From an uncultured Acidaminococcales bacterium (GTDB taxonomy: Bacteria > Bacillota > Negativicutes > Acidaminococcales > Acidaminococcaceae), in assembly GCA_964439485.1 (NCBI GenBank), contig CAYTOV010000004.1, forward strand, positions 1 through 41,901: DNA of 41,901 bases. Direction: 5' to 3'. The notes under the pieces were generated by a model. It saw nothing but the letters and a program-made list of their open reading frames with translations, was not told the origin of the DNA and made no database searches. Position numbers and translations under genes: made by a program. Positions 11,512-41,901 of the stretch are shown piece by piece. Numbering within the stretch: the first letter of the stretch is position 1; each line of letters begins with the position of its first letter.

Positions 11512-14037
11512 TTGCTCGAAGGTTTAATGAAAAAAATTTTCGGTGATCCGAATGAAAAAGAATTAAAAAGTGTTCAAGTGTATGTTGATGCAGTAAATGC
11601 TTTGGAAAAAGATATAGAAAACATGAGTGATGCGAGCCTTGCAGAAAAAACAGCTGAATTCAGGGACAGAATTGCTAAAGGTGCAACTTTGGATGATATT
11701 CTGCCGGAAGCTTTTGCGGTTGTACGTGAAGCGTCCAAGCGTGTTCTTGGTTTGCGCCATTTTGATGTACAATTAGTCGGCGGCTGTGTCCTGCACAGGG
11801 GTAAAATTGCGGAGATGCGTACGGGCGAAGGTAAAACTTTGGTTGCAACACTGCCAGCCTATTTGAATGCATTGACAGGCAAAGGCGTTCACATTGTTAC
11901 TGTTAATGAATATCTGGCTCATCGTGATAGCCAGGAAATGGGCAGAGTTTTTAATTTTTTAGGCCTTTCTGTTGGCTTGATTATTCATGGACTTGATTTC
12001 CCGGAAAGAAAAGCTGCTTATGCCGCAGATATAACATACGGCACCAATAACGAATTTGGCTTTGATTATTTGCGTGACAACATGGTCGTTTCGCTTGACC
12101 AGATGGTACAAAGACCTCTTAACTATGCGATTGTCGATGAGGTCGACAGTATTCTTGTTGACGAGGCTCGTACTCCGTTGATCATTTCTGGCCCGGGCGA
12201 AAAATCTACAGACCTGTACAAAGTATTAGCCCGTGTTGTTGCTCAACTGGTCGAGGGAGAAGACTATACTGTTGACGAAAAACTTAAAACGGCTGCTCCT
12301 ACAGAAGTTGGTATTGCTAAAGCCGAAAAAATGCTTGGCGTCGCTAACATGTATGCCGGTGAAGCCAGCATCGATTTCTCTCATCAATTAATGCAGGCTT
12401 TGAAAGCAAAAGCAATCATGCACCGTGATAGAGATTATGTAGTTAAAGATGGCGAAGTTATTATTGTTGATGAATTTACCGGCCGTCTGATGTTCGGACG
12501 TCGTTTTTCAGAAGGTCTGCATCAGGCAATTGAGGCTAAAGAAGGCGTTAAAGTTGAACGTGAAAGCCAGACTCTCGCTACGATAACCTTCCAAAATTAT
12601 TTCCGTATGTATGATAAGCTTTCTGGTATGACTGGTACTGCTAAGACAGAGGAACAAGAATTCCAAAAGATTTATGGACTGGATGTAATAGTTATTCCTA
12701 CTAATAAACCAAATCAGCGTATAGATTATCCTGATGTCATTTATAAAACAAAGAACGCTAAATATAAAGCTGCTGCTAACGAAATCGAAGAGTGCCATAA
12801 ATCAGGCAGACCTGTTCTTGTTGGTACGACTTCAATCGTGCAGTCAGAAGAGCTATCCGGTATTTTGAAAAAACGTGGAATTCCCCATACTGTCTTGAAT
12901 GCCAAGTTCCATGAGAAGGAAGCCGAAATCATAGCTGGTGCCGGACAATTCGGCGCTGTAACAATTGCTACTAATATGGCAGGCCGCGGTACAGATATCG
13001 TGCTCGGCGAGGGCGTTCCGGCTTTGGGAGGTCTCCATATTGTTGGTACCGAGCGTCATGAAAGCAGACGTATTGATAACCAGCTGCGTGGACGTTGCGC
13101 ACGTCAAGGCGACCCTGGTTCAACACGTTTCTATCTGTCTCTGGAAGATGATCTCATGCGTTTGTTTGGCTCCGACAATATTTCCAGCATCATGGATAAG
13201 CTGGGAATGGAAGAGGACGAACCGATTGAACATAGTCTGGTAACAAAATCTATCGAATCAGCGCAGAAGAAAGTGGAATCACGTAACTTTGATATGCGTA
13301 AACATGTTCTGGAATACGACGATGTTATGAATCAACAACGCGAAGTAATTTATGCTCAACGCAAGAAGATTCTTGTAGAGAATAATTTGCGTGAGAATAT
13401 CATGGATATGGTCACACGTGTCGTTGACAGAACAATGGTAATGTATGCTCCACCTGATGTTTATTCTGAAGAGTGGGATTTGCCGGCCCTGATTGCGTAT
13501 GCTGAAGAATTCTACGCACCGCCTAATACTTTAACTGTTGAGCATTTACAAACTCTCAGCCGTGAAGAATTAAATGAGTATTTGCAAAAACTTGCTGTAG
13601 ACTACTACGAACAAAGAGAAGAGTCAATTACTCCAGGGATTATGAGAGAACTTGAAAACCTTGTAATGCTTAAAGTCGTTGACAGTCATTGGATGCAGCA
13701 TCTGGATGCCATGGATATGCTGCGTGAAGGTGTAGGCCTGCGTGCTTATGGACAAAGAGATCCATTAGTTGAATATAAGCTTGAAGCTTATGATATGTTC
13801 CAGGCAATGATTGATGCTATTCAGGATGATGTCGTGCGCTATATGTACAGGGTTAACGTGGTTACGCAGCCGAAGGTTGAAGACCGCCTGCAGAATGCAA
13901 CGGTCAATAATCCTAGCGGTGATAGCGAAGCAGACGCTAAAAAACCTGTCGTTAAAGGTGAGGAGATCGGCCGTAATGACCCATGTCCTTGTGGCAGCGG
14001 CAAAAAATACAAAAATTGTTGTGGAATTGAAAAATAG
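11512..14037 (+). CDS. secA: Preprotein translocase ATPase SecA
   Basis: The motifs MRTGEGKTL and [19 protein letters not shown] are present, with a C-terminal zinc motif [14 protein letters not shown]. The RBS GAGGAG is at 11498-11503. The start is TTG 11512 or GTG 11509, and the ORF-track 11503 overlaps the RBS. Confidence 0.9.
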
Positions 14038-14044
14038 CGAACTG

Positions 14045-14080
14045 AGCGAAGTCGGAACTTATTAGAAGTTCGGCTTCGCT
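14045..14080 (+). terminator. Probable terminator after secA
   Basis: The hairpin pairs AGCGAAG..GAACTT with AAGTTC..CTTCGCT. The trailing T-tract is weak (TGGGTTATTTATT). Confidence 0.5.
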
Positions 14081-14123
14081 TGGGTTATTTATTGGAAATA
14101 AACTGTAAAAGGAAGTGAAACGT

Positions 14124-15231
14124 TTGCTTATAGAAGAATATAGACCAGAAATAAACAATTTAAAGCAGAAGTTAGACGAAATGAGGGGATCTCTTTGACG
14201 TCGCTCGCAAAGAGGACCGCATTGCTGAATTAGAACATAAAATGGGTGAGCCTAATTTTTGGGATAACCCGGAAGAAGCGCAAAAAGTCGCGCAAGTCGT
14301 TACACAACTAAAAGACGAAGTAGGCATTTTCCGGTCTTTGGAAACCAGATCGGAAGATCTGGAAGTTATGCTGGAACTTGCAATGGAAGAAGAAGACGCA
14401 GATATTGTCGGCGAAATCGAGCAATCATTGACGTCTGTACGTGCTGACATCGAACATCTTGAGCTAGGCATGCTTTTGTCAGGTGAATATGATGCAAACA
14501 ATGCGATTTTGACTTTACATGCCGGTGCAGGCGGAACAGAAGCTCAGGATTGGACATCAATGCTGCTCAGAATGTTTGGACGCTTTGCAGAGCGTTCTGG
14601 CTACAGTGTTGACGTTCTTGACTACCAACCAGGCGATGAAGCTGGCGTTAAAAGTGTTACTCTTGGTATTAATGGGCATAATGCCTATGGTTATATGAAA
14701 TCGGAAAAAGGCGTGCACCGTTTGGTCCGCATTTCTCCGTTTGACTCCAATGCGCGCAGACATACCTCGTTTGCAGCAGTTGATGTTATGCCGGAAATTG
14801 ATGACACAGTAGAAATTAATATCAGTCCTGCAGATTTAAAAGTTGATACCTATCGTGCCAGTGGCGCAGGCGGACAACATATTAATAAAACAGATTCTGC
14901 TGTACGTATGACGCATATCCCTACAGGAATCATAGTACAGTGCCAGAATCAACGTTCCCAGATACAAAATAGAGAGCGTTGCATGCAGTTGTTGCGCGCC
15001 AAATTATTTGAATATGAGAAACAAAAACAAGCAGAACTGAAATCCGATATTGCCGGTGATTATCAGGCGATAGAATGGGGCAGTCAGATACGTTCATATG
15101 TTTTTCACCCATATAATATGGTTAAAGACCACCGGACAGGCGCTGAAACAGGCAATGTGCAGGCTGTCATGGACGGTAATCTGGAACTTTTTGTCGAAGC
15201 ATACTTACGTAGTTTGCAGAAGATAAAATAA
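14124..15231 (+). CDS. prfB: Peptide chain release factor 2, requires programmed +1 frameshift: join(14124..14195,14197..15231)
   Basis: Frame 0 reads (V K R) L L I E E Y R P E I N N L K Q K L D E M R G S L, then stops at TGA 14196-14198. The +1 frame continues DVARKEDRIAELEHKMGEPNFW... and carries the SPF and GGQ motifs. The start is TTG 14124 (RBS AAGGAAG) or GTG 14115. Confidence 0.92.
14184..14199 (+). promoter_or_regulatory. RF2 autoregulatory +1 frameshift site
   Basis: AGG GGA TCT CTT TGA C: an internal SD-like AGGGGA, a 3-nt spacer, then the slippery CTT followed by in-frame TGA C. Confidence 0.9.
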
Positions 15232-15253
15232 TTATGCAGAAGAATTGGAATAG

Positions 15254-17371
15254 GTGGAGATTTTGTTGAGGAAAACCTGTTATAACCCGGTGTTAATTAT
15301 TATAATGGCGATTGCGCTTATTTTTTCAGTTCTTTTGAATTTCCAGCGTCATTCTGTTGAGCAGGCTAACCGAACTGTGGAAATGGCGATGGAATATGAG
15401 AGTATTGCCAGAATGGCACATGGTGAAGGTGTGTCTGAAGAAAAAGTCTTGAAGATGTTCAAAGATCGCGGTGTTACCAGCCTGATCCTTTTTGACACAA
15501 CTTTGCAGAAACTTGGCGACAAAGGTAAGGTAACCGTAGTTACGGGATCTGACCTTTTGCATGCCTATCGCACCAATCAGATACAGAGTGGCATATGGCA
15601 GGATTTGATCGTTAAAGGAAAGATTTTAACGAATGCTGCTTATGTTACTGAAGGCTCATCTCCTCTTACCATGCAGGATGTGGAAGAAGACCTTACTTTA
15701 CGCTTCGGTAAAGACCTTGTTCATGTTATTTCAGAGTCACCGAAGGTTATCGAGGTAAAAGGCGATACCAAACTTGTTGAAGGCGAAGCCTATGGCGAAC
15801 AAAAAGGCATTCGGCAAATGGATCTGGGCTTGTCGTCAGAAGAACTGCAGCTGGCCAAAAATCTTGGTTTCATGGTTATTGCCAGACCAGTAAATTATGG
15901 GCATGGCTATAACATGGCCTCTGCACCTGAACGTGAGCAAATTGATGGCTTTTTCAACCGCCTTGACAAATCGGGTGCTAAGATATCGGCTTTCGCCGGC
16001 AGCGGCAAAACAATACTTGGTTATAAGCAAAATCTTGACTATGTAGCAGAAAATCTTCTTAAACGTGATATTACGCTGGCGATGGTCGAAAATATTGTCC
16101 AGCTTCAGTTTGTACCATTGGAGGGGCTTGTACCTATGGCCGAACTGATGGATTACAAAGGTGCTCGTACTTACGTTATTGATAAAGCAGAGCAAAAGAA
16201 GCTGAAAGTTAATGAAGCAATGCTTCGTTGGGCTTTGACCGATGAAGAACGTAACATCAGAATTAATTATGTTAAGACCTTCTTGGAACCACAGGATGGC
16301 AAGACCTTGCTGCAGACTAATCTGGATTACGTAGAAGATATTACGAAAAGTGTCGAAGCGAGAAATTTCAGCATAGGCAAGGCTGGTATCTTTGCAAAAT
16401 ATATGCCTAATCGCTTGCTGTTTATCCCAATCGTCTTTGGTATTCTAGCGGCCGGCATGCTTTATCTTACGCAGCTCATTGAGATTAAGAAGAAGCATCA
16501 ATATCTTCTGCTATTGGCTGCGGGCTTGCTTTTCAGCGCAGTAATCTTGTTTGCTAAGGGACTATTGGCAAGGCAAGTGCTTGCATTGTGTGCTGCCACC
16601 GTTATTCCGGTGCTTTCCCTGAACTATATTCTTAATATCTGGGATAATTACCATGGCGGCGGCAAGCCGTTGACAGCTGTCCTTTTTGCAGCTACATGGC
16701 AGCTGGCAATGGCTATAGCAATTTCGCTGGTTGGTGCTTCGTTCGTCGGAGCAATTCTTGGCGATGTTCGTTTTCTGATGGAGATTGATATTTATAAAGG
16801 CGTAAAGCTGACCTTTATTTTACCTATATTACTGATGTTTTTCCTGTGCGTCAGAAGGTATTCTTTGTTTGAAGGTGATGACGATAGTAAAAATGTAATT
16901 ACCAGAATCGAGAATGTACTTTCCCGTCCTATAACTTTGAAAGTAGTTTTTGCCATGATCGTTTTTGCTTTTATTGCCTGGGTATTTATTGGCCGTTCTG
17001 GGCATACAGCCGGAGTGCCGGTGCCGGACATTGAAGTAAAATTAAGACTTTTCCTTGAAGAAATGATGAAGGCGCGTCCGCGTGAAAAAGAATTTTTGGT
17101 TGGCCACCCAGCCTTTTACTTGGCTGCGTTTGCGGTCTACAATAAATTCCCACGTCTTCTCAGTGTTGCTTTTATCTTGGCCGCAACTATCGGACAAGGC
17201 TCATTGGTACAAACTTTTGCTCATATGAGAACTCCCATAATTATGTCTTATATCAGGGCAATTGATGGCTACCTGCTGGGAGCAGCAATAGGTATCTGTG
17301 TACTTATTGCGTTTGCCATATTCTATCCTTATTTGCAGGCTTTACAAAGGAGATACTTGAAGCATGAGTAA
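15254..17371 (+). CDS. Large polytopic membrane protein (DUF5693-like by recollection); N-terminal anchor, ~360-aa extracytoplasmic domain, C-terminal multi-TM block
   Basis: 705 aa. The hydrophobic segments are read by eye. It overlaps the csaB start by 8 nt. Confidence 0.6.
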   Translation: MEILLRKTCYNPVLIIIMAIALIFSVLLNFQRHSVEQANRTVEMAMEYESIARMAHGEGVSEEKVLKMFKDRGVTSLILFDTTLQKLGDKGKVTVVTGSDLLHAYRTNQIQSGIWQDLIVKGKILTNAAYVTEGSSPLTMQDVEEDLTLRFGKDLVHVISESPKVIEVKGDTKLVEGEAYGEQKGIRQMDLGLSSEELQLAKNLGFMVIARPVNYGHGYNMASAPEREQIDGFFNRLDKSGAKISAFAGSGKTILGYKQNLDYVAENLLKRDITLAMVENIVQLQFVPLEGLVPMAELMDYKGARTYVIDKAEQKKLKVNEAMLRWALTDEERNIRINYVKTFLEPQDGKTLLQTNLDYVEDITKSVEARNFSIGKAGIFAKYMPNRLLFIPIVFGILAAGMLYLTQLIEIKKKHQYLLLLAAGLLFSAVILFAKGLLARQVLALCAATVIPVLSLNYILNIWDNYHGGGKPLTAVLFAATWQLAMAIAISLVGASFVGAILGDVRFLMEIDIYKGVKLTFILPILLMFFLCVRRYSLFEGDDDSKNVITRIENVLSRPITLKVVFAMIVFAFIAWVFIGRSGHTAGVPVPDIEVKLRLFLEEMMKARPREKEFLVGHPAFYLAAFAVYNKFPRLLSVAFILAATIGQGSLVQTFAHMRTPIIMSYIRAIDGYLLGAAIGICVLIAFAIFYPYLQALQRRYLKHE

Positions 17372-18452
17372 AATTTTGATTTCCGGTTATTATGGTTTTT
17401 CGAACGCCGGTGATGAAGCAATGTTGACAGCCATTATCGAGGCTCTGCGTGCTGAACGGCAAGATGTCGAAATTACTGTTATGTCCGGCAAACCGGAAAT
17501 CACAGCGGAAAAACACGGAGTAAATTCGATTCACAGGTTTAATCCTTTGCAAATATTCAAAGCAATGTTGAGTGCGGACTTGCTTTTATCCGGCGGCGGC
17601 AGTCTCCTGCAGGATGTCACGAGCAAACGCAGCATTCTCTATTACTTAAGCATTCTGTTGATGGCAAAGCTATTGGGAAAAAAGGTCATGCTCTATGCAC
17701 AAGGTATTGGCCCGATAAACTCTTCTGTCGCACGCAGTTTGACAAAATACGTCTGCAGAAAAGCAGACCTCATCACGGTAAGAGATGATGGCTCCTACGA
17801 TGAATTGCTGGAAATGGGGCTATCGGCTGACAGGATACTGGTTACTGCTGATGCCGTCTTTTCATTGGTTGCCGATCGAAAAGATATTGGCAGAAAGATT
17901 CTTCAGGAAAATGGTCTGGAGGGCGGTAAACCAATTATAGGTATTGCTGTCAGACATTGGCCCGGAGAGCAAAGATTCATGCATGTGTTTGCCGAGGCAG
18001 CTTTTAAGCTGCGTAAACAATATGATGCCTATATTGTTTTTGTGCCTTTACAGTTCCCGTCTGACACGAAAATTGCTAAGGAAATTGCACTTTTGATGGA
18101 AGACCAGACGGATACCATTATTCTTGAAGAGGGATATACTACAGAAGAATATGTTTCTCTTATCAGTAATCTTGACCTTTTGATAGGTATGAGGCTGCAT
18201 GCACTAGTTTTTTCCGCACTGGCAGGCGTACCGTTTTTAGCTGTTTCCTATGACCCAAAGGTTGATCGTTTTGTCAAAGGAATGGAAGGAACTGTTGCTG
18301 GCAGCATAGACAAGATAACCAGCGAAGATATCTTGCTTGAAAGTGCAAGAATGTGGCAGCGTGTGCCACAGAAGCAGAACGCCAAAATACAAGCCTTACG
18401 CGAGGAAGCGCAGCGAAATGCTGCTCGTGCGGTTGGCTTGTTAAAAAAATGA
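17364..18452 (+). CDS. csaB: Polysaccharide pyruvyl transferase CsaB
   Basis: MSKILISGYYGFSNAGDEAML... is the typical CsaB N-terminus. The length is about 360 aa. Confidence 0.8.
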   Translation: MSKILISGYYGFSNAGDEAMLTAIIEALRAERQDVEITVMSGKPEITAEKHGVNSIHRFNPLQIFKAMLSADLLLSGGGSLLQDVTSKRSILYYLSILLMAKLLGKKVMLYAQGIGPINSSVARSLTKYVCRKADLITVRDDGSYDELLEMGLSADRILVTADAVFSLVADRKDIGRKILQENGLEGGKPIIGIAVRHWPGEQRFMHVFAEAAFKLRKQYDAYIVFVPLQFPSDTKIAKEIALLMEDQTDTIILEEGYTTEEYVSLISNLDLLIGMRLHALVFSALAGVPFLAVSYDPKVDRFVKGMEGTVAGSIDKITSEDILLESARMWQRVPQKQNAKIQALREEAQRNAARAVGLLKK

Positions 18453-18473
18453 TAAAATGAAGGAGGCCTTGCC

Positions 18474-19166
18474 TTGCTATTAATGAGTGGTGTCAGTAAA
18501 ACCTATCGTAATGGTTCAGTGGCTTTAAAAAATATTGATTTGCATATAAAGCCCGGCGAGTTTGTCTTTATAGTTGGGCCTAGTGGCGCAGGTAAGTCCA
18601 CCTTTATCAAAATGCTATTCAAAGAAGTATTGCCTACTACCGGTAAAATTTATGTTGACGGTGTCGATGTCCTGGCTTTGACTGATAAGGAAGTTCCTTT
18701 TTTGCGAAGACAGTTGGGTATTATTTTTCAGGATTACCGTCTTTTACCTGACCGCACTGTTTATGACAACGTTGCTTTTGCTATGCAGGTTATTGAATCT
18801 CCAGCGGTGAAGACAAGACGGCGTGTTATGACAGTTTTAGAACTTGTTGGCCTGAAAAACCGTGCCAATGCTTATCCGGCGGAGCTATCAGGTGGCGAGC
18901 AGCAGAGAATAGCTATTGCCCGGGCAATTGTTAATGATCCTATCATGGTAATTGCAGATGAACCTACGGGTAATCTTGATCCGGAAACGAGTAAAGATAT
19001 CATGCGTATTTTTACCGGCATCAATGAAAGTGGTACGACAATAGTAATGGCAACACATGACAAAGAAATTGTAGATGCCATGGGTAAACGCGTAATTGCA
19101 ATAGAAAATGGCGTAATCGTCAGAGATGATGCCAAGGGAGTTTACGGATATGAGTCTGAGCACTAA
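18474..19166 (+). CDS. ftsE: Cell-division ABC ATPase FtsE
   Basis: The start is TTG with RBS AGGAGG. The motifs are GPSGAGKST, LSGGEQQR and ADEPTGNLD. Confidence 0.9.
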   Translation: MLLMSGVSKTYRNGSVALKNIDLHIKPGEFVFIVGPSGAGKSTFIKMLFKEVLPTTGKIYVDGVDVLALTDKEVPFLRRQLGIIFQDYRLLPDRTVYDNVAFAMQVIESPAVKTRRRVMTVLELVGLKNRANAYPAELSGGEQQRIAIARAIVNDPIMVIADEPTGNLDPETSKDIMRIFTGINESGTTIVMATHDKEIVDAMGKRVIAIENGVIVRDDAKGVYGYESEH

Positions 19167-20037
19167 AGAATATTTTGTCAGGGAAACTTTTAAGTCAATA
19201 AAACGCAATCAGCTGATGAGTCTTGCCTCAGTTTCAACCGTAGCGTTGTCGCTGCTTGTTCTCGGCATTTTTATGGTTATGGTTTTTAATACTAATCATG
19301 TTGCCAAGTTTTTAGAGACGCAGGTTCAGATTTCGGTATATATGGCAGATTCAGCTAGCTCTGAAACGCTGAAAGCTACTGAAAAAACACTGAAGGCATT
19401 GCCTGGTGTTACAAGCGTAAAGAATATAACTAAGGATGAAGCTTTAGAGAGATTCAAGGATCGATTGGGCAGCCAGAGTAATCTGCTTGATTTTATGGGT
19501 GATGAAAATCCTTTCCCCTATTCTTTTGAAGTCCATGTTGATAAACCTGAACGTATCAGCGAACTGGCACCTAAAATTGACGACCTTAATGGTGTTGAGA
19601 CTGCCAAATTCGGACAGGAAGTTGTCGAGAATATCTTCAGACTGACAAAGATAATGAGAGTTGGCGGCATATTGCTTGTTCTATTGTTAGCCATGGCTAC
19701 TCTCTTTATTATTGTTAACACGATACGTATTACCGTTTTTGCCCGCCGCAGGGAAGTAACGATAATGAAATATGTTGGTGCTACTGACTGGTTCATTCGT
19801 TGGCCGTTTTTGTTGGAAGGGATGTTCCTGGGTTTTACAGGAGCTTTAGTTGCTACGCTTATTATTAATCAGGTATATGGTGCTATCTTAAACAGTGTGC
19901 ACGCAACTCTTGCTTTTTTCCCGCTTCTTCCTACCTGGCCGCTATTGTTGTATATAGATATTACGCTGATAGTTATTGGTACGGCTATCGGGGCTGCAGG
20001 CAGCAGCATATCTCTGCGTAAATTTTTAAAGGTTTAA
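19150..20037 (+). CDS. ftsX: Cell-division permease-like protein FtsX
   Basis: The start is MSLSTKEYFVRETFKSIKRN. It has one TM, an extracellular loop domain and three C-terminal TMs. It overlaps ftsE by 17 nt. Confidence 0.88.
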   Translation: MSLSTKEYFVRETFKSIKRNQLMSLASVSTVALSLLVLGIFMVMVFNTNHVAKFLETQVQISVYMADSASSETLKATEKTLKALPGVTSVKNITKDEALERFKDRLGSQSNLLDFMGDENPFPYSFEVHVDKPERISELAPKIDDLNGVETAKFGQEVVENIFRLTKIMRVGGILLVLLLAMATLFIIVNTIRITVFARRREVTIMKYVGATDWFIRWPFLLEGMFLGFTGALVATLIINQVYGAILNSVHATLAFFPLLPTWPLLLYIDITLIVIGTAIGAAGSSISLRKFLKV

Positions 20038-20051
20038 TGTCGGAGGCATCT

Positions 20052-21188
20052 ATGTTGAAGAAAGATATAATAGCTGTGTTTTTGGCCGCAACATTTTTTC
20101 TTAATCTTGTTGCGCCTGTTGGTGCAGCATCAATAGAAGATAAACAAGCTGAATTGGAAAGTATTCAACAACAGCTTTATAACAAAGATGTGGAACGTGA
20201 AAATGCCAAGCAGGTTGTCGCTTCGGCAACAGACAAACTTCTTGAGGCGCAGTCCCAGCTCAGCGAAGCGCAGCATGAGCTTGCTACGGTTGAAGAAGAA
20301 CGCGAAGATCTGGAAGATAAGATTTCAAACAATACTGTAGCTTTGGACAGAAAAAAAGAACAGGTTGATAAACGTGTTGCTGTTTATCGCGGACGTTTGA
20401 AAGATATTTACATTAACGGACAGATTAATTATCTTGATGTTTTGTTAGGTGCAAAAGATTTTTCGGATTTTTCTTCGCGTATGTATTTGTTAAAAAAGAT
20501 TATTGCCAATGATGTTTCCTTGCTAGCCGACTTGAAAAAGAAAAAAGCAGAGCTGGAAGCAGCTCAGGAAGTCTTGGCAAGCAATATGGCCAGGGTTAAG
20601 ACTGTACATAGTGAAGTATCCTCTAAGCAGCAGTTGGTTGCTCAAAAAACAATGGAACGTGAATCAGCCTATAACGACGCCGTATCTGAACAGAGCCGCC
20701 TGGATGAGGAATACAATGAATTGATGGAAACTTCGCAGCGCATAGCTGATATGATTCGTAATCTGGAAAGCGGCGGTACTATCTCGTCTGCAAGCAGGGG
20801 ATCAGGCGCCTTTGTCTGGCCTATTTATGGCGAAATTACTTCTCCTTTTGGCTGGCGCACACATCCGATTTTTGGTACGCAGAAATTCCATTCCGGCCTT
20901 GATATCGCAGCAGATTATGGTGATCCGGTTGTTGCTGCTAATTCCGGCACAGTAATCTATGCTGACTGGATGGGCGGCTATGGTAATGCTGTGATGATCG
21001 ACCATGGCGGCGGCTTGGTTACTTTGTATGGACACAACTCCAGCCTTGCTGTTTATAATGGCCAGCAAGTGTCAAAAGGCCAGACGATTGCTTATGCAGG
21101 CAGCACTGGTTATTCTACAGGACCGCATTGTCATTTTGAAGTGCGTATTCATGGTGAAGTAACAGATCCAATGAATTACTTACCATAA
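20052..21188 (+). CDS. Coiled-coil M23 (LytM) peptidoglycan endopeptidase/activator, EnvC/PcsB-like
   Basis: The RBS GGAGG is at 20042-20046. There is a signal peptide, a ~200-aa coiled-coil region, and a C-terminal M23 domain with HSGLDIAA and HCHFEV metal ligands. Confidence 0.85.
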   Translation: MLKKDIIAVFLAATFFLNLVAPVGAASIEDKQAELESIQQQLYNKDVERENAKQVVASATDKLLEAQSQLSEAQHELATVEEEREDLEDKISNNTVALDRKKEQVDKRVAVYRGRLKDIYINGQINYLDVLLGAKDFSDFSSRMYLLKKIIANDVSLLADLKKKKAELEAAQEVLASNMARVKTVHSEVSSKQQLVAQKTMERESAYNDAVSEQSRLDEEYNELMETSQRIADMIRNLESGGTISSASRGSGAFVWPIYGEITSPFGWRTHPIFGTQKFHSGLDIAADYGDPVVAANSGTVIYADWMGGYGNAVMIDHGGGLVTLYGHNSSLAVYNGQQVSKGQTIAYAGSTGYSTGPHCHFEVRIHGEVTDPMNYLP

Positions 21189-21206
21189 AAATGGGGGAGC
21201 CTGAGC

Positions 21207-22355
21207 ATGTTAAAGAAAAGATTTAGTATCGTTACAGTTGTAATCGCTTGCATTTGCTCCTGCGGCCTGGTTATTGGCGCACTTCTTTATGGGCTGCAGT
21301 CTGTAACGGGCAGCTTACCTGGGACCTTTAAATTCATGAGAGCACTTTCTATAGTTCGCAGCAGCTTTATCGAATCCGTTGATTATAACAAGCTGTATGA
21401 AGGTGCTATTAAAGGTATGGTTAATGCTTTAGGTGATCCTTATTCTGTCTATCTTGATGAGGAAAGTTTCAAATCATTAGTCACGAGCACTGAAGGACAT
21501 TTTGGTGGCATTGGTGTTGTCATCGGCATGAAGGACAATAATTTTGTTGTGATTGCGCCGCTTAAGGGAACGCCAGGTGACAGAGCTGGCATAAAAAGTG
21601 GGGATAAGATAACCGCCATTGACAGCAAAAAAACTGCCGGACAGACATTAGAAGACGTGGTTGCGCAAATTCGTGGTAAAGAAGGAACTACTGTCGAAAT
21701 TGAGTTAAAAACTGTTGCCGGTGAAGTAAAGACAGTACGAGTAATCAGGTCGGACATCAAACTGGAAACCGTTGCCGGCGAAATGAAAAATAATAAAATA
21801 GGCTACATACGGATAGGTATGTTTAATGAAAATACCGGATCTGATTTTATTAAAAAGTTTCATGAGCTTGAAGGTCAAGGTATGGAAGGCTTAGTGCTCG
21901 ATTTAAGAGATAATCCCGGGGGCCTACTTGGTGAAAGCGTCAAAGTGGCAGAGCTGATGGTACCTAAAGGGCCGATTGTTTCTGTGACGGAAAGAAGCGG
22001 TAAAAGCGTTACCGAATATTCCAGCCTTGAAAAGACAAAATATCCTGTGGCAGTAATTGTTAACCAAGGGACAGCAAGTGCTGCCGAAATTGTTGCAGGT
22101 GCTTTGCAGGATACAAAGGCAGGGAAACTTTTTGGAACTAAAACTTTTGGCAAAGGTTCTGTGCAGGCTGTCAGCAATCTTGATGAAAGCACTGGTATGA
22201 AATTAACAATAGCCCGCTACTATACACCTAGTGGCCGTTCAATCAATGGCACAGGGATAGAACCGGACGTGGTGATTGAGGCAGCTGGTGAAACCGGTGA
22301 GAATCAGTTAACCGAAGCAATTAGTTATTTAGAAAAAGAGCTTGTAAAAAAATAA
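21207..22355 (+). CDS. ctpA: S41 carboxy-terminal processing protease
   Basis: There is an N-terminal TM, a PDZ domain (GDRAGIKSGDKI), and the S41 motifs GTASAAEIVAGALQD and TFGKGSVQ. Confidence 0.88.
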   Translation: MLKKRFSIVTVVIACICSCGLVIGALLYGLQSVTGSLPGTFKFMRALSIVRSSFIESVDYNKLYEGAIKGMVNALGDPYSVYLDEESFKSLVTSTEGHFGGIGVVIGMKDNNFVVIAPLKGTPGDRAGIKSGDKITAIDSKKTAGQTLEDVVAQIRGKEGTTVEIELKTVAGEVKTVRVIRSDIKLETVAGEMKNNKIGYIRIGMFNENTGSDFIKKFHELEGQGMEGLVLDLRDNPGGLLGESVKVAELMVPKGPIVSVTERSGKSVTEYSSLEKTKYPVAVIVNQGTASAAEIVAGALQDTKAGKLFGTKTFGKGSVQAVSNLDESTGMKLTIARYYTPSGRSINGTGIEPDVVIEAAGETGENQLTEAISYLEKELVKK

Positions 22356-38342: not shown

Positions 38343-39269
38343 GTGTCTTTTTCAAATGAAGTTAAAAATGAACTGGCCCGGATTGAAGGACAAAAAAGCT
38401 GCTGTGATAAAGGTGAATTGTATGGCTTGCTGAAAATGAGCGGTGCAATTGTTTTGAGTGGCAGAAATATAGGCATTCATTTCTCAACAGAAAACGCTGC
38501 TTTGGCGCGAAGAATGCTGCAACTATTGAAGACAAACTTTAAACTGCAGACCGAGGTTGTAATAACCAGATCGCGGCGTTTGAAGAAAAATAACCGCTAT
38601 CAGGTCAGAGTGCTGCCATCACCAGAGGTCAGTATGGCCCTGGAGACACTTCAACTGTTGACAAGCATTGCAGAAGGAAAAGCAAAACTACTTTCTACCA
38701 GTTGCTGCCGAAGAGCTTTTTTACGAGGGGCCTTTATGGCCGGAGGTTCTGTTAGCAGGCCTGCCGGTGATTATCATCTCGAAATGGTCACAGGTAATTA
38801 TGATTTTGCTGAATTGATCAGGAGTATAATACATTCTTTTTCCATGCCGGTTAAGATGACGGACAGAAAAGGCGAATATATTGTTTACCTTAAGGAGGGC
38901 AATGCGATAACATCTTTTCTTTCTGTTATTGGTGCACATAATGCCTTGATGGAATTTGAAAATGTGCGTATAATTAAAGAAATGCGCAATAACGTTAATC
39001 GTATTGTCAATTGTGAAACAGCTAATTTGAATAAAACCGTGCAGGCAGCCGTCCACCAAGTTGAAAGCATCAAGTATATAGGTGAAGTTTTAGGGCTTTC
39101 TAAATTACCTTCTACTTTGCGGGAAACTGCAGAAATGCGGCTTACTTATCCGGAAGCATCTTTGACCGAGCTTGCGGATATGGCAACAGGCAAAATAGGA
39201 AAATCCGGAATTAATCATAGGCTGAAAAAATTGGAACAGATAGCTAAAGATTTGGGGATGACTGATTGA
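38343..39269 (+). CDS. whiA: DNA-binding sporulation/cell-division regulator WhiA
   Basis: GTG 38343 gives VSFSNEVKNELARI, preceded by RBS GGGGAG. It has a LAGLIDADG-like domain and a C-terminal HTH. Confidence 0.9.
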   Translation: MSFSNEVKNELARIEGQKSCCDKGELYGLLKMSGAIVLSGRNIGIHFSTENAALARRMLQLLKTNFKLQTEVVITRSRRLKKNNRYQVRVLPSPEVSMALETLQLLTSIAEGKAKLLSTSCCRRAFLRGAFMAGGSVSRPAGDYHLEMVTGNYDFAELIRSIIHSFSMPVKMTDRKGEYIVYLKEGNAITSFLSVIGAHNALMEFENVRIIKEMRNNVNRIVNCETANLNKTVQAAVHQVESIKYIGEVLGLSKLPSTLRETAEMRLTYPEASLTELADMATGKIGKSGINHRLKKLEQIAKDLGMTD

Positions 39270-40084
39270 TGTCGAGAGTAGTCAAGATTATTCTTTGTGT
39301 TTTTGGGTTTCTAGTAGTTGTTGGTATCGCTTTATACGCAGATTTTGCAAAATTTTGTAGTCGAAGCGTCCCTGTTTTTGCTTACCACAGGATTACTACC
39401 AATAAGGATATTTACAGCATGCCACCTGATACTTTTGAGGCACAAATGAAATATCTGCATGATAATGGTTATAAAAGTATCAGCCTTAATGAATTCGTAA
39501 ATAAAAGAGAAATGGGCCCTGATGCTTTTAATAAAAATTTTGTTATAACTTTTGATGATGGATATTGCGATAATAATAGGGTTGCCATGCCAATCATGAA
39601 AAAATATGGTTATACAGGTACTGTTTTTATTGCTATCAAATATATGGCTTGGCCTGGCTATGTTACCTGGCAGGATGTGGTAAGCCTGAAAGAGAATGGT
39701 TGGGAAATAGGTTCACATACTTATAACCATGTCGCTTTGGCTAAAGCTACGCCAGAGGAACTTGATGCCGAACTGAAAAATTCAAAAGAGTTTTTGAATA
39801 AATTTGATCCGGCCTTCAATGTAAATACAATTGCTTATCCTTTCGGTAGCTATAATGAGGATGTTTATAGCGCGTTGTCAAAAAATGGCTATATTGCGGC
39901 GGCAACCGGTATAGATGGCGTTAATACCGCAGAGACTCCTGTTTACCAGTTGTATAGAGTCAACATCTTCAACGATGGCAAGGATGTAAAAATGTTTGCC
40001 AAAAGACTTTTGTGGGCTCAATTGAGCAGCTGGACGAGATCACATGGTATTGATATTACTCAGGCACGCAGGTTCTTGCAGTAA
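39266..40084 (+). CDS. Membrane-anchored polysaccharide deacetylase (NodB/CE4)
   Basis: There is an N-terminal TM and the motifs TFDDGY and SHTYNH. The start is TTG 39266 or ATG 39269, overlapping the whiA stop. Confidence 0.85.
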   Translation: MMSRVVKIILCVFGFLVVVGIALYADFAKFCSRSVPVFAYHRITTNKDIYSMPPDTFEAQMKYLHDNGYKSISLNEFVNKREMGPDAFNKNFVITFDDGYCDNNRVAMPIMKKYGYTGTVFIAIKYMAWPGYVTWQDVVSLKENGWEIGSHTYNHVALAKATPEELDAELKNSKEFLNKFDPAFNVNTIAYPFGSYNEDVYSALSKNGYIAAATGIDGVNTAETPVYQLYRVNIFNDGKDVKMFAKRLLWAQLSSWTRSHGIDITQARRFLQ

Positions 40085-40099
40085 ATATGCTAATAATAC

Positions 40100-40128
40100 T
40101 TGCAGTATTAGCCAAAAGAATATAAAAT
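40100..40128 (+). promoter_or_regulatory. Candidate promoter of the SCIFF precursor gene
   Basis: TTGCAG (40100-40105), a 17-nt spacer, then TAAAAT (40123-40128). Confidence 0.5.
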
Positions 40129-40164
40129 AATACTAATTCAAGAATACATCGGAGGTGTTCATAA

Positions 40165-40308
40165 ATGAAGAAACATATTAAAACCGTGAATAAAGCTATG
40201 TTGAACAAAACTTTAAAAACCGGTGGTTGTGGAGAATGCCCAGCTTCCTGTCAATCAGCTTGCAAGACTTCCTGCACTGTTGGCAACCAAGTTTGCGAAA
40301 AACAATAA
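40165..40308 (+). CDS. scfA: Six-cysteine ranthipeptide precursor SCIFF (47 aa; absent from the ORF track)
   Basis: The sequence is MKKHIKTVNKAMLNKTLKTGGCGECPASCQSACKTSCTVGNQVCEKQ. The RBS GGAGG (40151-40155) lies 9 nt upstream. The core GGCGEC..SCQSACKTSCTVGNQ.CE is nearly identical to the SCIFF consensus. Confidence 0.9.
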   Translation: MKKHIKTVNKAMLNKTLKTGGCGECPASCQSACKTSCTVGNQVCEKQ

Positions 40309-40328
40309 TGAGTGTTTGTAGCACTTAT

Positions 40329-40357
40329 GCTCCCTGCCAGCGCAGGGAGCTATTTTT
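40329..40357 (+). terminator. Intrinsic terminator/attenuator between the precursor and maturase genes
   Basis: GCTCCCTGC-CAGC-GCAGGGAGC is a 9-bp GC-rich stem followed by TATTTTT. Confidence 0.8.
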
Positions 40358-40383
40358 CTGTAAAAGAAAGGCGGAAATTTTAA

Positions 40384-41790
40384 TTGCTGATTCATAAAAT
40401 GAAACTGGACGACAATATGGCCGTCCTTGATATTAATAGCGGTGCTGTTCACCTTGTTGACGAAATCATCTATGATGTCCTGGATGTTTTTAACGGAGAA
40501 AACGACGAAGAAACACTTAGAGCTTTTTCTGGTCGTTATTCAGAGGAAGACATCAGGGAAGTTTTGGCAGAACTGCATGAATTAAAAGATGAAGGACTTT
40601 TGTTCTCTCCAGAGTATCCTGTACCGGATACTTTTAGCGAAGAGCCTGTGCTTAAGTCCCTTTGCCTGCATATTGCACATGATTGCAATTTGCGCTGTGG
40701 CTATTGTTTTGCTGGTACTGGCGATTTTGGCGGTAAACGTGAGTTGATGAGCAAGGAAATTGCGGAGAAGGCAGTAGAATTTGCAATCAAAGGCAGCAAA
40801 AAAAGACACAATCTAGAACTGGATCTCTTTGGCGGCGAGCCTTTAGTCAATCCTGATGTTGTTCGTCATGTCATTAATTACGTGCGGAAACGTGAGAAGG
40901 AAACTGGCAAGAACATCAAACTTACCTTAACGACTAATGGTACTTTATTAAATGATGATATTGTGGAGTTTTTAAATGAAAACCGCGTAATGCTGGTTTT
41001 AAGCCTGGACGGTAAAAAAGAGACACATGATCAGATGCGTCCGTTCCCAAATAAAATCGGCAGCTACGATGCTGCTGTGCGTGGCTTTAAAAAGGTAATA
41101 GAGAGCCGTGAAGGCAAAAACTATTATTTGCGGGGAACTTATACCCACTATGACGTACATTTTGCTGAGTCAGTACTCGATATGGCAAAAGTTGGCAAGG
41201 AGATTTCTGTCGAACCGGTTGTCGGTGTTGATGAACCATATGTGCTGACCGATGATGATTTGCCGGTAATCATGGAAGAATATGAAAAACTGGCGAGAAT
41301 TTATCTGCAAAGAAGGCATGAAGGCAATCCTTTTGATTTCTTCCACTTCAATGTAGCACTTGATAACGGCCCATGTGTTGCTAAGAGACTCGCGGGTTGT
41401 GGCGCGGGGCATGAGTATTTTGCAATAACACCTGAAGGCGATATTTATCCGTGCCATCAATTTGTTGGCAGGGAAGAATATAAATTTGGAACACTCGAAA
41501 CGGGCGTGGTTAAACCTGAGCTTGTTCAAAAGTTCCGTCATATGCACGTAATGAACAAACCAACCTGCCGTGAATGTTGGGCAAGGTTTTTCTGCAGTGG
41601 CGGGTGTCATGCCAATGCTGATCTTATTAACGGAGACATCAGCAAACCTTATGAGTATGGCTGCAAGCTGCAGAAAAAACGTCTGGAATGTGCAATAATC
41701 ATTCAATCATTGCTGACAGCTGATGCCCAGGAGGGCGGCTCTGATCTGCGTCCGACTATCGATAATTTTAAGTATAAAGTTGAGAAATAG
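40384..41790 (+). CDS. scfB: Radical SAM/SPASM thioether-forming SCIFF maturase
   Basis: It has the CNLRCGYC radical-SAM cluster motif. The C-terminal SPASM cysteines are CGAGHEYFAITPEGDIYPCHQF and CRECWARFFCSGGCHANA. The N-terminus LDINSGAVHLVDE is typical of SCIFF maturases. Confidence 0.9.
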   Translation: MLIHKMKLDDNMAVLDINSGAVHLVDEIIYDVLDVFNGENDEETLRAFSGRYSEEDIREVLAELHELKDEGLLFSPEYPVPDTFSEEPVLKSLCLHIAHDCNLRCGYCFAGTGDFGGKRELMSKEIAEKAVEFAIKGSKKRHNLELDLFGGEPLVNPDVVRHVINYVRKREKETGKNIKLTLTTNGTLLNDDIVEFLNENRVMLVLSLDGKKETHDQMRPFPNKIGSYDAAVRGFKKVIESREGKNYYLRGTYTHYDVHFAESVLDMAKVGKEISVEPVVGVDEPYVLTDDDLPVIMEEYEKLARIYLQRRHEGNPFDFFHFNVALDNGPCVAKRLAGCGAGHEYFAITPEGDIYPCHQFVGREEYKFGTLETGVVKPELVQKFRHMHVMNKPTCRECWARFFCSGGCHANADLINGDISKPYEYGCKLQKKRLECAIIIQSLLTADAQEGGSDLRPTIDNFKYKVEK

Positions 41791-41797
41791 GTTATGA

Positions 41798-41827
41798 TTT
41801 GTCTGCCGCTGAAACGCGGCAGACAAA
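41798..41827 (+). terminator. Hairpin after scfB
   Basis: TTTGTCTGCCGC/GCGGCAGACAAA is a 12-bp stem with a weak trailing U-tract (AATTTC). Confidence 0.55.
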
Positions 41828-41853
41828 ATTTCAAATAAACTTCCGGAAGGGGG

Positions 41854-41882
41854 TTGCCAGAGGGCATAAAATCTGATATTAT
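41854..41882 (+). promoter_or_regulatory. Outward-reading candidate promoter at the window edge
   Basis: TTGCCA (41854-41859), a 17-nt spacer, then TGaTATTAT (41874-41882). Its target lies outside the window. Confidence 0.35.
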
Positions 41883-41901
41883 AAATAAGCCGTCGGGTGA
41901 G

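Follow-up and report, generated by a model that had tools for sequence, protein, structure and literature searches.

A SCIFF ranthipeptide locus with a conserved terminator between precursor and maturase genes in an uncultured Acidaminococcaceae bacterium

The SCIFF family was reportedly defined in 2011. A SCIFF maturase has already been crystallised, and the NCBI pipeline (PGAP) names both SCIFF genes automatically. The closest known system to the locus described here is CteA/CteB (thermocellin) of Clostridium thermocellum (PDB 5WGG/5WHY). SCIFF chemistry has been reviewed together with the cross-links of CteA and Tte1186a, and the acceptor residue of CteA is disputed between reports, which give either Thr34 or Thr37 (PMC8326336). 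Tte1186a/Tte1186 of Caldanaerobacter subterraneus belong to the same TIGR03973/TIGR03974 family as ScfA/ScfB; they have been characterised only in vitro, where a single Cys32-Thr37 thioether was found (PMC8326336). PapA/PapB (freyrasin) and QhpD represent related radical-SAM/SPASM clades that form thioethers, but they differ from ScfB in acting on other substrates and in making Cys-Asp/Glu beta/gamma links. RiPP operons at large most commonly obtain more precursor than enzyme by means of an imperfect terminator placed behind the precursor gene (PMC7113386).

We analysed a window of 41,901 nt (contig CAYTOV010000004.1) from an uncultured member of the Acidaminococcaceae (Negativicutes). It carries a two-gene SCIFF ranthipeptide unit, scfA-scfB. 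As a SCIFF system the locus is real but ordinary, of a kind already known and routinely annotated. The best overall explanation of its layout, to which we give a probability of roughly 0.75, is that scfA has its own promoter, a leaky terminator follows scfA, read-through reaches scfB, and ScfB makes thioethers in the precursor. The coordinates in a preliminary description of the locus all held when the sequence was read again, and the features are as follows.

40100 to 40128, + strand: scfA promoter, with -35 TTGCAG (40100-40105), a 17-nt spacer and -10 TAAAAT (40123-40128); from the sequence and family conservation
40151 to 40155, + strand: scfA Shine-Dalgarno sequence GGAGG, 9 nt before the ATG; from the sequence, every family locus having GGAGG or GGGAGG in the same position
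40165 to 40308, + strand: scfA, SCIFF precursor of 47 aa; from TIGR03973, PF13165 and conservation
40329 to 40359, + strand: intrinsic terminator, stem GCTCCCTGC/GCAGGGAGC, loop CAGC, tail TATTTTTCT; from scan, folding and conservation
40366 to 40374, + strand: scfB Shine-Dalgarno sequence GAAAGGCGG, 9 nt upstream of the TTG start codon; from the sequence and family conservation
40384 to 41790, + strand: scfB, SCIFF thioether-forming radical-SAM/SPASM maturase of 468 aa; from TIGR03974, Pfam and the CteB match
41798 to 41827, + strand: hairpin with a weak U tail that closes scfAB, UUUGUCUGCCGC-UGAAAC-GCGGCAGACAAA (-20.6 kcal/mol); from folding and comparison

The precursor and maturase genes

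The scfA frame runs from the ATG at 40165 to the TAA stop codon at 40306-40308 and encodes MKKHIKTVNKAMLNKTLKTGGCGECPASCQSACKTSCTVGNQVCEKQ. The preliminary description had proposed this 47-aa ORF on account of its strong Shine-Dalgarno sequence and of six cysteines in SCIFF spacing, and both points were confirmed. The leader comprises approximately residues 1-19 and is followed by GG; the core extends from C22 to C44, and its cysteines (C22, C25, C29, C33, C37 and C44) are spaced CxxCxxxCxxxCxxxCx6C. In profile searches ScfA scored 86.8 bits against TIGR03973 (cutoff 50, E=6e-25) and 85.5 bits against PF13165 (cutoff 27). A SCIFF HMM search had been suggested with TIGR03973 and TIGR03974; both identifiers were correct and both genes scored above the cutoffs. 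Over 72 distinct nucleotide versions the protein sequence of the core (G20-C44) was invariant while synonymous sites varied freely, and scfA is therefore a translated gene under purifying selection. A maturase gene within 500 bp of the precursor has been used as a criterion for such pairs (PMC5300114), and scfB starts 75 nt past the scfA stop.

The precursor had been called unannotated, which is true of the earlier ORF track only, since gene callers and NCBI annotate the peptide routinely. ScfA was predicted by gene callers on 8/8 contigs among the matches listed, an NCBI entry 98% identical to it bears the name 'six-cysteine ranthipeptide SCIFF [Acidaminococcaceae bacterium]', and the exact peptide is present in 999 blocks of a public collection.

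The adjacent gene had been described as encoding a 468-aa maturase with a CxxxCxxC motif and a SPASM domain, and on this the family model, the Pfam domains and the CteB alignment agree. ScfB scored 585.7 bits against TIGR03974 (cutoff 425, profile search), and its matches to Radical_SAM, Fer4_12 and SPASM were all over the Pfam cutoffs. For the SPASM cysteines, TIGR04085 gave 73.6 bits against a cutoff of 27, and PF13186 gave 26.4 bits against one of 21.5. Against the 'not_ScfB' exception model for ScfB-related orphans, NF040492, the protein reached 517 bits, under the cutoff of 855; it also stayed under the cutoffs of the models for the PapA/PapB and QhpD clades, NF047865 (267 bits) and TIGR03906 (252 bits), while passing that for ScfB. 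The radical-SAM motif CNLRCGYC (CX3CX2C; C101, C105 and C108) occupies residues 101-108 (nt 40684-40707), and the SPASM cysteines are C331, C339, C357, C395, C398, C404, C408, C427 and C436 (nt 41374-41691). The TTG at 40384 aligns with the ATG of relatives (M-L-I-H-K-M), so that the 468-aa reading is right; most database homologues are also 468 aa long. The best matches, with 94-99% identity, were uncultured Acidaminococcales and Acidaminococcaceae MAGs, followed by Phascolarctobacterium (approximately 80%) and Acidaminococcus (approximately 74%).

Like CteB (5WGG), with which it aligned over residues 2-441 (E=9e-149), ScfB has the CX3CX2C motif and every SPASM cysteine in register. ScfB residues 2-90 aligned to the N-terminal part of CteB. 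ScfA shares the six-cysteine core of CteA, and residues C33, T35 and T38 in the window correspond to C32, T34 and T37 of CteA; the published donor cysteine and both disputed acceptor threonines are therefore present in ScfA. The core reads GECPASC in place of the usual GECQTSC. Unlike that of Tte1186a/Tte1186, the thioether chemistry of ScfA/ScfB is here predicted from the genes. By homology, a putative N-terminal RRE-like domain of ScfB would bind the ScfA leader, and the radical-SAM and SPASM auxiliary clusters would then install at least one Cys-to-Thr non-alpha-carbon thioether in the core. The expected link is Cys33 to Thr35 or Thr38, as predicted from Cys32-Thr34/Thr37 of CteA. Later steps, namely cleavage, export and the physiological role of the product, are putative.

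Promoter and terminator of scfA

The 130 nt upstream of scfA were aligned from all loci. A single conserved island was found, CTTGCA-N17-TAAAAT with an AAAAC block in the spacer, and the rest of the upstream sequence could not be aligned. The relaxed pattern TTG[CA]NN-N16-18-TANN[AC]T, located 27-58 nt before the scfA start, occurred in 70/70 distinct Acidaminococcaceae upstream sequences and the strict pattern CTTGC..TA[ACG]AAT in 67 of these 70, in agreement with the earlier proposal that scfA has its own promoter. Transcription is predicted to start at about 40135. Sigma-A-type promoters were also found 5' of scfA in Desulfotomaculum, Pectinatus, Sporomusa, Peptococcus, Selenomonas and five Clostridia/Tissierellia contigs. 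A generic sigma-70 scan did not flag the scfA promoter, because its -35 hexamer fits the consensus at only 3/6 positions. No terminator was found from the pda stop (40084) to this promoter, so transcription of the upstream operon may also feed scfA.

The hairpin downstream of scfA begins 20 nt past the stop codon. Its arms (40329-40337 and 40342-40350) form 9 bp, 7 of them GC, and it is followed at 40351-40359 by the tail, in which U occupies 6/8 of the first bases. The folding energy is -17.6 kcal/mol, with pair probabilities of 0.99-1.0 in a partition-function calculation on the predicted 225-nt transcript. A single-sequence terminator scan found 4 candidates where 1.5+/-1.5 are expected in 2.1 kb, which is within chance, and the significance of the terminator comes instead from its conservation across loci. 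The stem motif GCTCCCTG..CRGGGRGC with a U-run was present between scfA and scfB in 74/94 loci compared. It occurred once per locus, with no other copy in those loci or in the window, and is thus not a repeated REP-like element. The remaining scfA-bearing family loci have a variant or replaced hairpin at the same place, the stem being replaced in four of them (L043, L062, L075 and L080), so that every Acidaminococcaceae locus with scfA has a hairpin and U-run after it. Cultured relatives with the same hairpin are Acidaminococcus intestini DSM 21505 and Phascolarctobacterium succinatutens YIT 12067.

Ten other Bacillota lineages (Desulfotomaculum, Pectinatus, Sporomusa, Peptococcus, Selenomonas, Anaerosalibacter, Lachnospiraceae, Ruminococcus and two further Clostridia contigs) have a hairpin and U-run of unrelated stem sequence directly 3' of scfA. 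Within the family, pairing of the 9-bp core is complete (100%), mostly through invariant or wobble pairs, and gives little independent support for the helix; as this conservation is one of sequence identity and not of covariation, the structural case for the hairpin rests on the cross-order comparison. The terminator proposed earlier between precursor and maturase was thus found in every lineage sampled.

The same element had also been called an internal attenuator. The terminator part of that claim stands, and the term attenuator is too strong. Antitermination, or attenuation by an alternative fold, was rejected, since no competing pairing to the hairpin exists in the predicted transcript and nothing therefore points to conditional control. 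We regard the element as a plain terminator that is presumably leaky. The scfB start lies only 25 nt past the U-run, and these 25 nt contain the scfB Shine-Dalgarno sequence (kept as GAAAGGTGG/GAAAGGCGG in family intergenic regions); this leaves no room for an scfB promoter, and scfB would have to be transcribed through the hairpin. From this anatomy we infer that read-through supplies the maturase. Given the strong stem and U-rich tail, terminator efficiency could be near complete.

On this reading, the promoter at 40100-40128 would drive a scfA transcript of approximately 220 nt that mostly ends at the terminator. A minority of polymerases would pass the terminator and transcribe scfB, translated from its own ribosome-binding site, and the substrate peptide would be in excess over the catalytic enzyme. 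Like scfAB, microcin, lantibiotic and thiopeptide operons have the precursor gene first and then a hairpin and U-run that damp transcription of the enzyme gene (PMC7113386). For scfAB, the counterpart of the RiPP 'attenuators' of those operons is documented by comparison of loci. The order of own promoter, precursor, terminator and maturase appears to be universal over SCIFF loci from three Bacillota classes, and it predicts that scfA gives a short, abundant transcript. In the searchable literature we found no description of this layout or of a precursor-maturase terminator for SCIFF, nor informative SCIFF transcriptome data.

Across genera the stem of the scfA terminator was unexpectedly invariant, while its loop and flanks, like the terminator downstream of scfB, varied.

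Alternative roles of the hairpin

Three other roles of the hairpin were weighed against that of a leaky terminator. It might be a conditional element that switches scfB on and off, either as an attenuator to which a protein or RNA binds or as a palindrome resembling an operator. The stem GCTCCCTG/CRGGGRGC is near-invariant across genera whose ScfB proteins are 73-97% identical, in loci that show complete turnover of the loop, of the flanking sequence and of the terminator past scfB, and the motif is absent elsewhere in the window and the loci, all of which would suit such a role. The predicted transcript has no alternative pairing against the hairpin, however, and a scan of 39000-41901 against Rfam at E<=1 returned two sub-threshold chance hits only. 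Moreover, unrelated stems stand at the same place in other orders, and the four family loci with a replaced stem also speak against this role. Conservation of the promoter is just as high and points to strong selection in general on the signals of a highly expressed gene; the simpler explanation of the stem could be such selection acting on all signals of a small gene with very high expression. We therefore consider conditional switching in general improbable. The narrower version, in which the near-invariant stem is a candidate sequence-specific protein or RNA site that makes maturase expression conditional, is very improbable; if it were true, the stem would be a dedicated switch for when the abundant SCIFF precursor gets modified.

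The strength of the stem would also suit a full stop, with scfA monocistronic and scfB either hardly expressed or transcribed from a separate promoter in the 3' end of scfA. A promoter-like sequence, TTGGCA-18-AATAAT with 10/12 matches, does lie at 40280-40309, but a transcript starting from about 40316 must still cross the hairpin at 40329, and the candidate -10 is made up of sequence around the stop codon that varies among relatives. It is true that scfB can function apart from scfA: in L043 and L062 the two genes are parted by inserts of 0.9-1.4 kb, and in L025 scfB follows groEL and has its own promoter. Against this, the tight spacing of scfA, terminator, Shine-Dalgarno sequence and scfB is retained in approximately 70 loci, and a full stop in the window appears very doubtful. 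The hairpin could, with still less to commend it, serve mainly to stabilise the 3' end of scfA mRNA after processing. In that case a bicistronic transcript would be cleaved and its scfA portion shielded against exonucleases, the excess of peptide then arising from differential stability and not from termination. The same anatomy would be expected, and sequence alone cannot tell stability from termination; the hairpin after scfB is conserved with no good U-run, so tail-less hairpins are maintained in the locus. The U-rich tail after the scfA hairpin, needless for a mere stabiliser, is nevertheless found in every lineage, and it speaks against this role.

Two further candidates were examined and set aside. 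The Ala-Ser-Cys codons of scfA, GCTTCCTGT (40243-40251), resemble the 5' arm GCTCCCTG and might pair with the 3' arm. A 7/8 match of this kind arises by chance with a probability of approximately 0.05, and synonymous sites in these codons show no special conservation; the likeness was taken as a coincidence. Ribosome-mediated read-through was put aside given the distance of the hairpin from the stop codon (20 nt here and 11-42 nt in relatives), which places it mostly beyond the footprint of a terminating ribosome.

Gene neighbourhood and extent of the unit

As the preliminary description had noted, scfAB directly follows rapZ-yvcK-whiA-pda, and the upstream genes were identified as those for RapZ, CofD/YvcK, WhiA and a polysaccharide deacetylase. 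Its statement that the locus has no exporter or immunity partner also agrees with our survey, in which the ORFs of the window included no C39 peptidase/exporter and no immunity-like gene. The host is an Acidaminococcaceae gut/digester bacterium.

It had been suggested that conservation of the whiA-pda-scfAB linkage be surveyed, and the outcome was mixed. The order rapZ-yvcK-whiA-pda-scfAB is kept throughout the Acidaminococcaceae, in some loci with an insert of 2.6-6 kb separating pda from scfA, and with one or two genes added it is also found in Pectinatus and Sporomusa. It was absent from the Desulfotomaculum, Selenomonas, Peptococcus and Clostridia loci examined. The linkage was thus seen in Negativicutes only and is best read, from gene order, as lineage-specific synteny.

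The Clostridia/Tissierellia contigs (L095, L096 and L098-L100) have the arrangement yajC-TIGR04086-scfA-scfB-secDF. In comparison with CteA/CteB, the host here is a diderm Negativicute and the context is whiA-pda in place of yajC/secDF. Neither the window nor any of the family loci has a homologue of the clostridial partner TIGR04086 (DUF3792 membrane protein), and the adjacent pair of TIGR04086/DUF3792 and secDF that marks the clostridial neighbourhood was not found here. Because SCIFF loci have no single conserved neighbourhood, guesses at their function from neighbouring genes need caution.

Downstream, the unit is bounded by its own hairpin and then by an rRNA operon. On contig L081, which is 99-100% identical, a complete rRNA operon begins approximately 360 nt past scfB, and this accounts for the end of the window, and of almost all related contigs, at that point. 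The hairpin closing scfAB shows compensatory changes in close relatives (L003, L082 and L084), and in other genera canonical terminators of unrelated sequence take its place.

Terminator stem and separation of scfA from scfB

The stem of the terminator between scfA and scfB, GCTCCCTG/CRGGGRGC (window positions 40329-40350), was near-invariant between genera in alignment A2, whereas turnover was seen in the terminator loop, in the flanks and in the terminator downstream of scfB.

The two genes are not adjacent in every comparison locus (L-numbers, with their own coordinates). In some Phascolarctobacterium genomes, a bona fide ScfB is encoded immediately 3' of groEL (L025, 9700-11398; also L022, L023, L028, L032 and L033). 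This groEL-adjacent ScfB scored 573 bits against the maturase family model TIGR03974, whose cutoff is 425 bits, and its gene has its own promoter, TTGAGC-17-TATAAT. The sequence around the groEL-linked scfB, covered to a distance of at most 10 kb in either direction, contained no scfA. Conversely, scfA of Peptococcus simiae and of a Ruminococcus MAG has no adjoining scfB but has its own promoter and terminator (L093, 6001-6144; L097, 5001-5141). These lone scfA genes conflict with the expectation that ScfB accompanies every ScfA (PMC5300114).

In two Phascolarctobacterium-like loci, scfA and scfB are split by inserts of 0.9 to 1.4 kb (L043, 8600-10000; L062, 4150-5067), and scfA retains a terminator of differing sequence in both. 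One insert contains a 190-aa and a 111-aa ORF, whose sequences by eye suggest a flavin reductase and a regulator of the HxlR type, respectively; the other contains a 121-aa hydrophobic ORF whose sequence resembles a YccF-type membrane protein.

Genomic context and peptide variation

In Clostridia and Tissierellia, scfAB is found in the order yajC-TIGR04086(DUF3792)-scfA-scfB-secDF(-recJ) (L095, L096, L098-L100). In contrast, the Negativicutes loci lack the yajC/secDF context and have no TIGR04086 gene near scfAB. ScfA of Phascolarctobacterium succinatutens-type genomes carries a seventh Cys, with the C-terminus ...VCEHCK (L027-L040).

Downstream of scfB, the window contains the following element:

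41854-41882, candidate promoter, TTGCCA-17-TATTAT with a TG

It is probably the promoter of an rRNA operon. In L081, a contig 99-100% identical to the window, a complete operon in the order 16S, two tRNAs, 23S and 5S (11984-17094) starts about 360 nt downstream of scfB. Almost every related contig ends at this rRNA operon site.

Several contigs with this Acidaminococcaceae scfAB locus are filed under other taxa, namely Acholeplasmataceae, Fusicatenibacter, E. coli, Bacteroides, Duodenibacillus, Bacteroidaceae, Segatella and Treponema (L002, L009, L020, L029, L031, L041, L044, L050, L051 and L072). These foreign labels probably reflect contamination during MAG binning.

Other features of the window

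Two further features were recorded in the window:

14184-14199, prfB frameshift site, SD-like AGGGG followed by CTT TGA C
15254-22355, run of cell-envelope genes between prfB and uvrBAC

The former is a classic RF2 programmed +1 frameshift site, located upstream of the PCRF/RF-1 ORF (prfB, 14242-15231). The latter comprises genes for a DUF5693 protein, a polysaccharide pyruvyl transferase, FtsE, FtsX, an M23/PcsB-like peptidase and an S41 CtpB-like protease.
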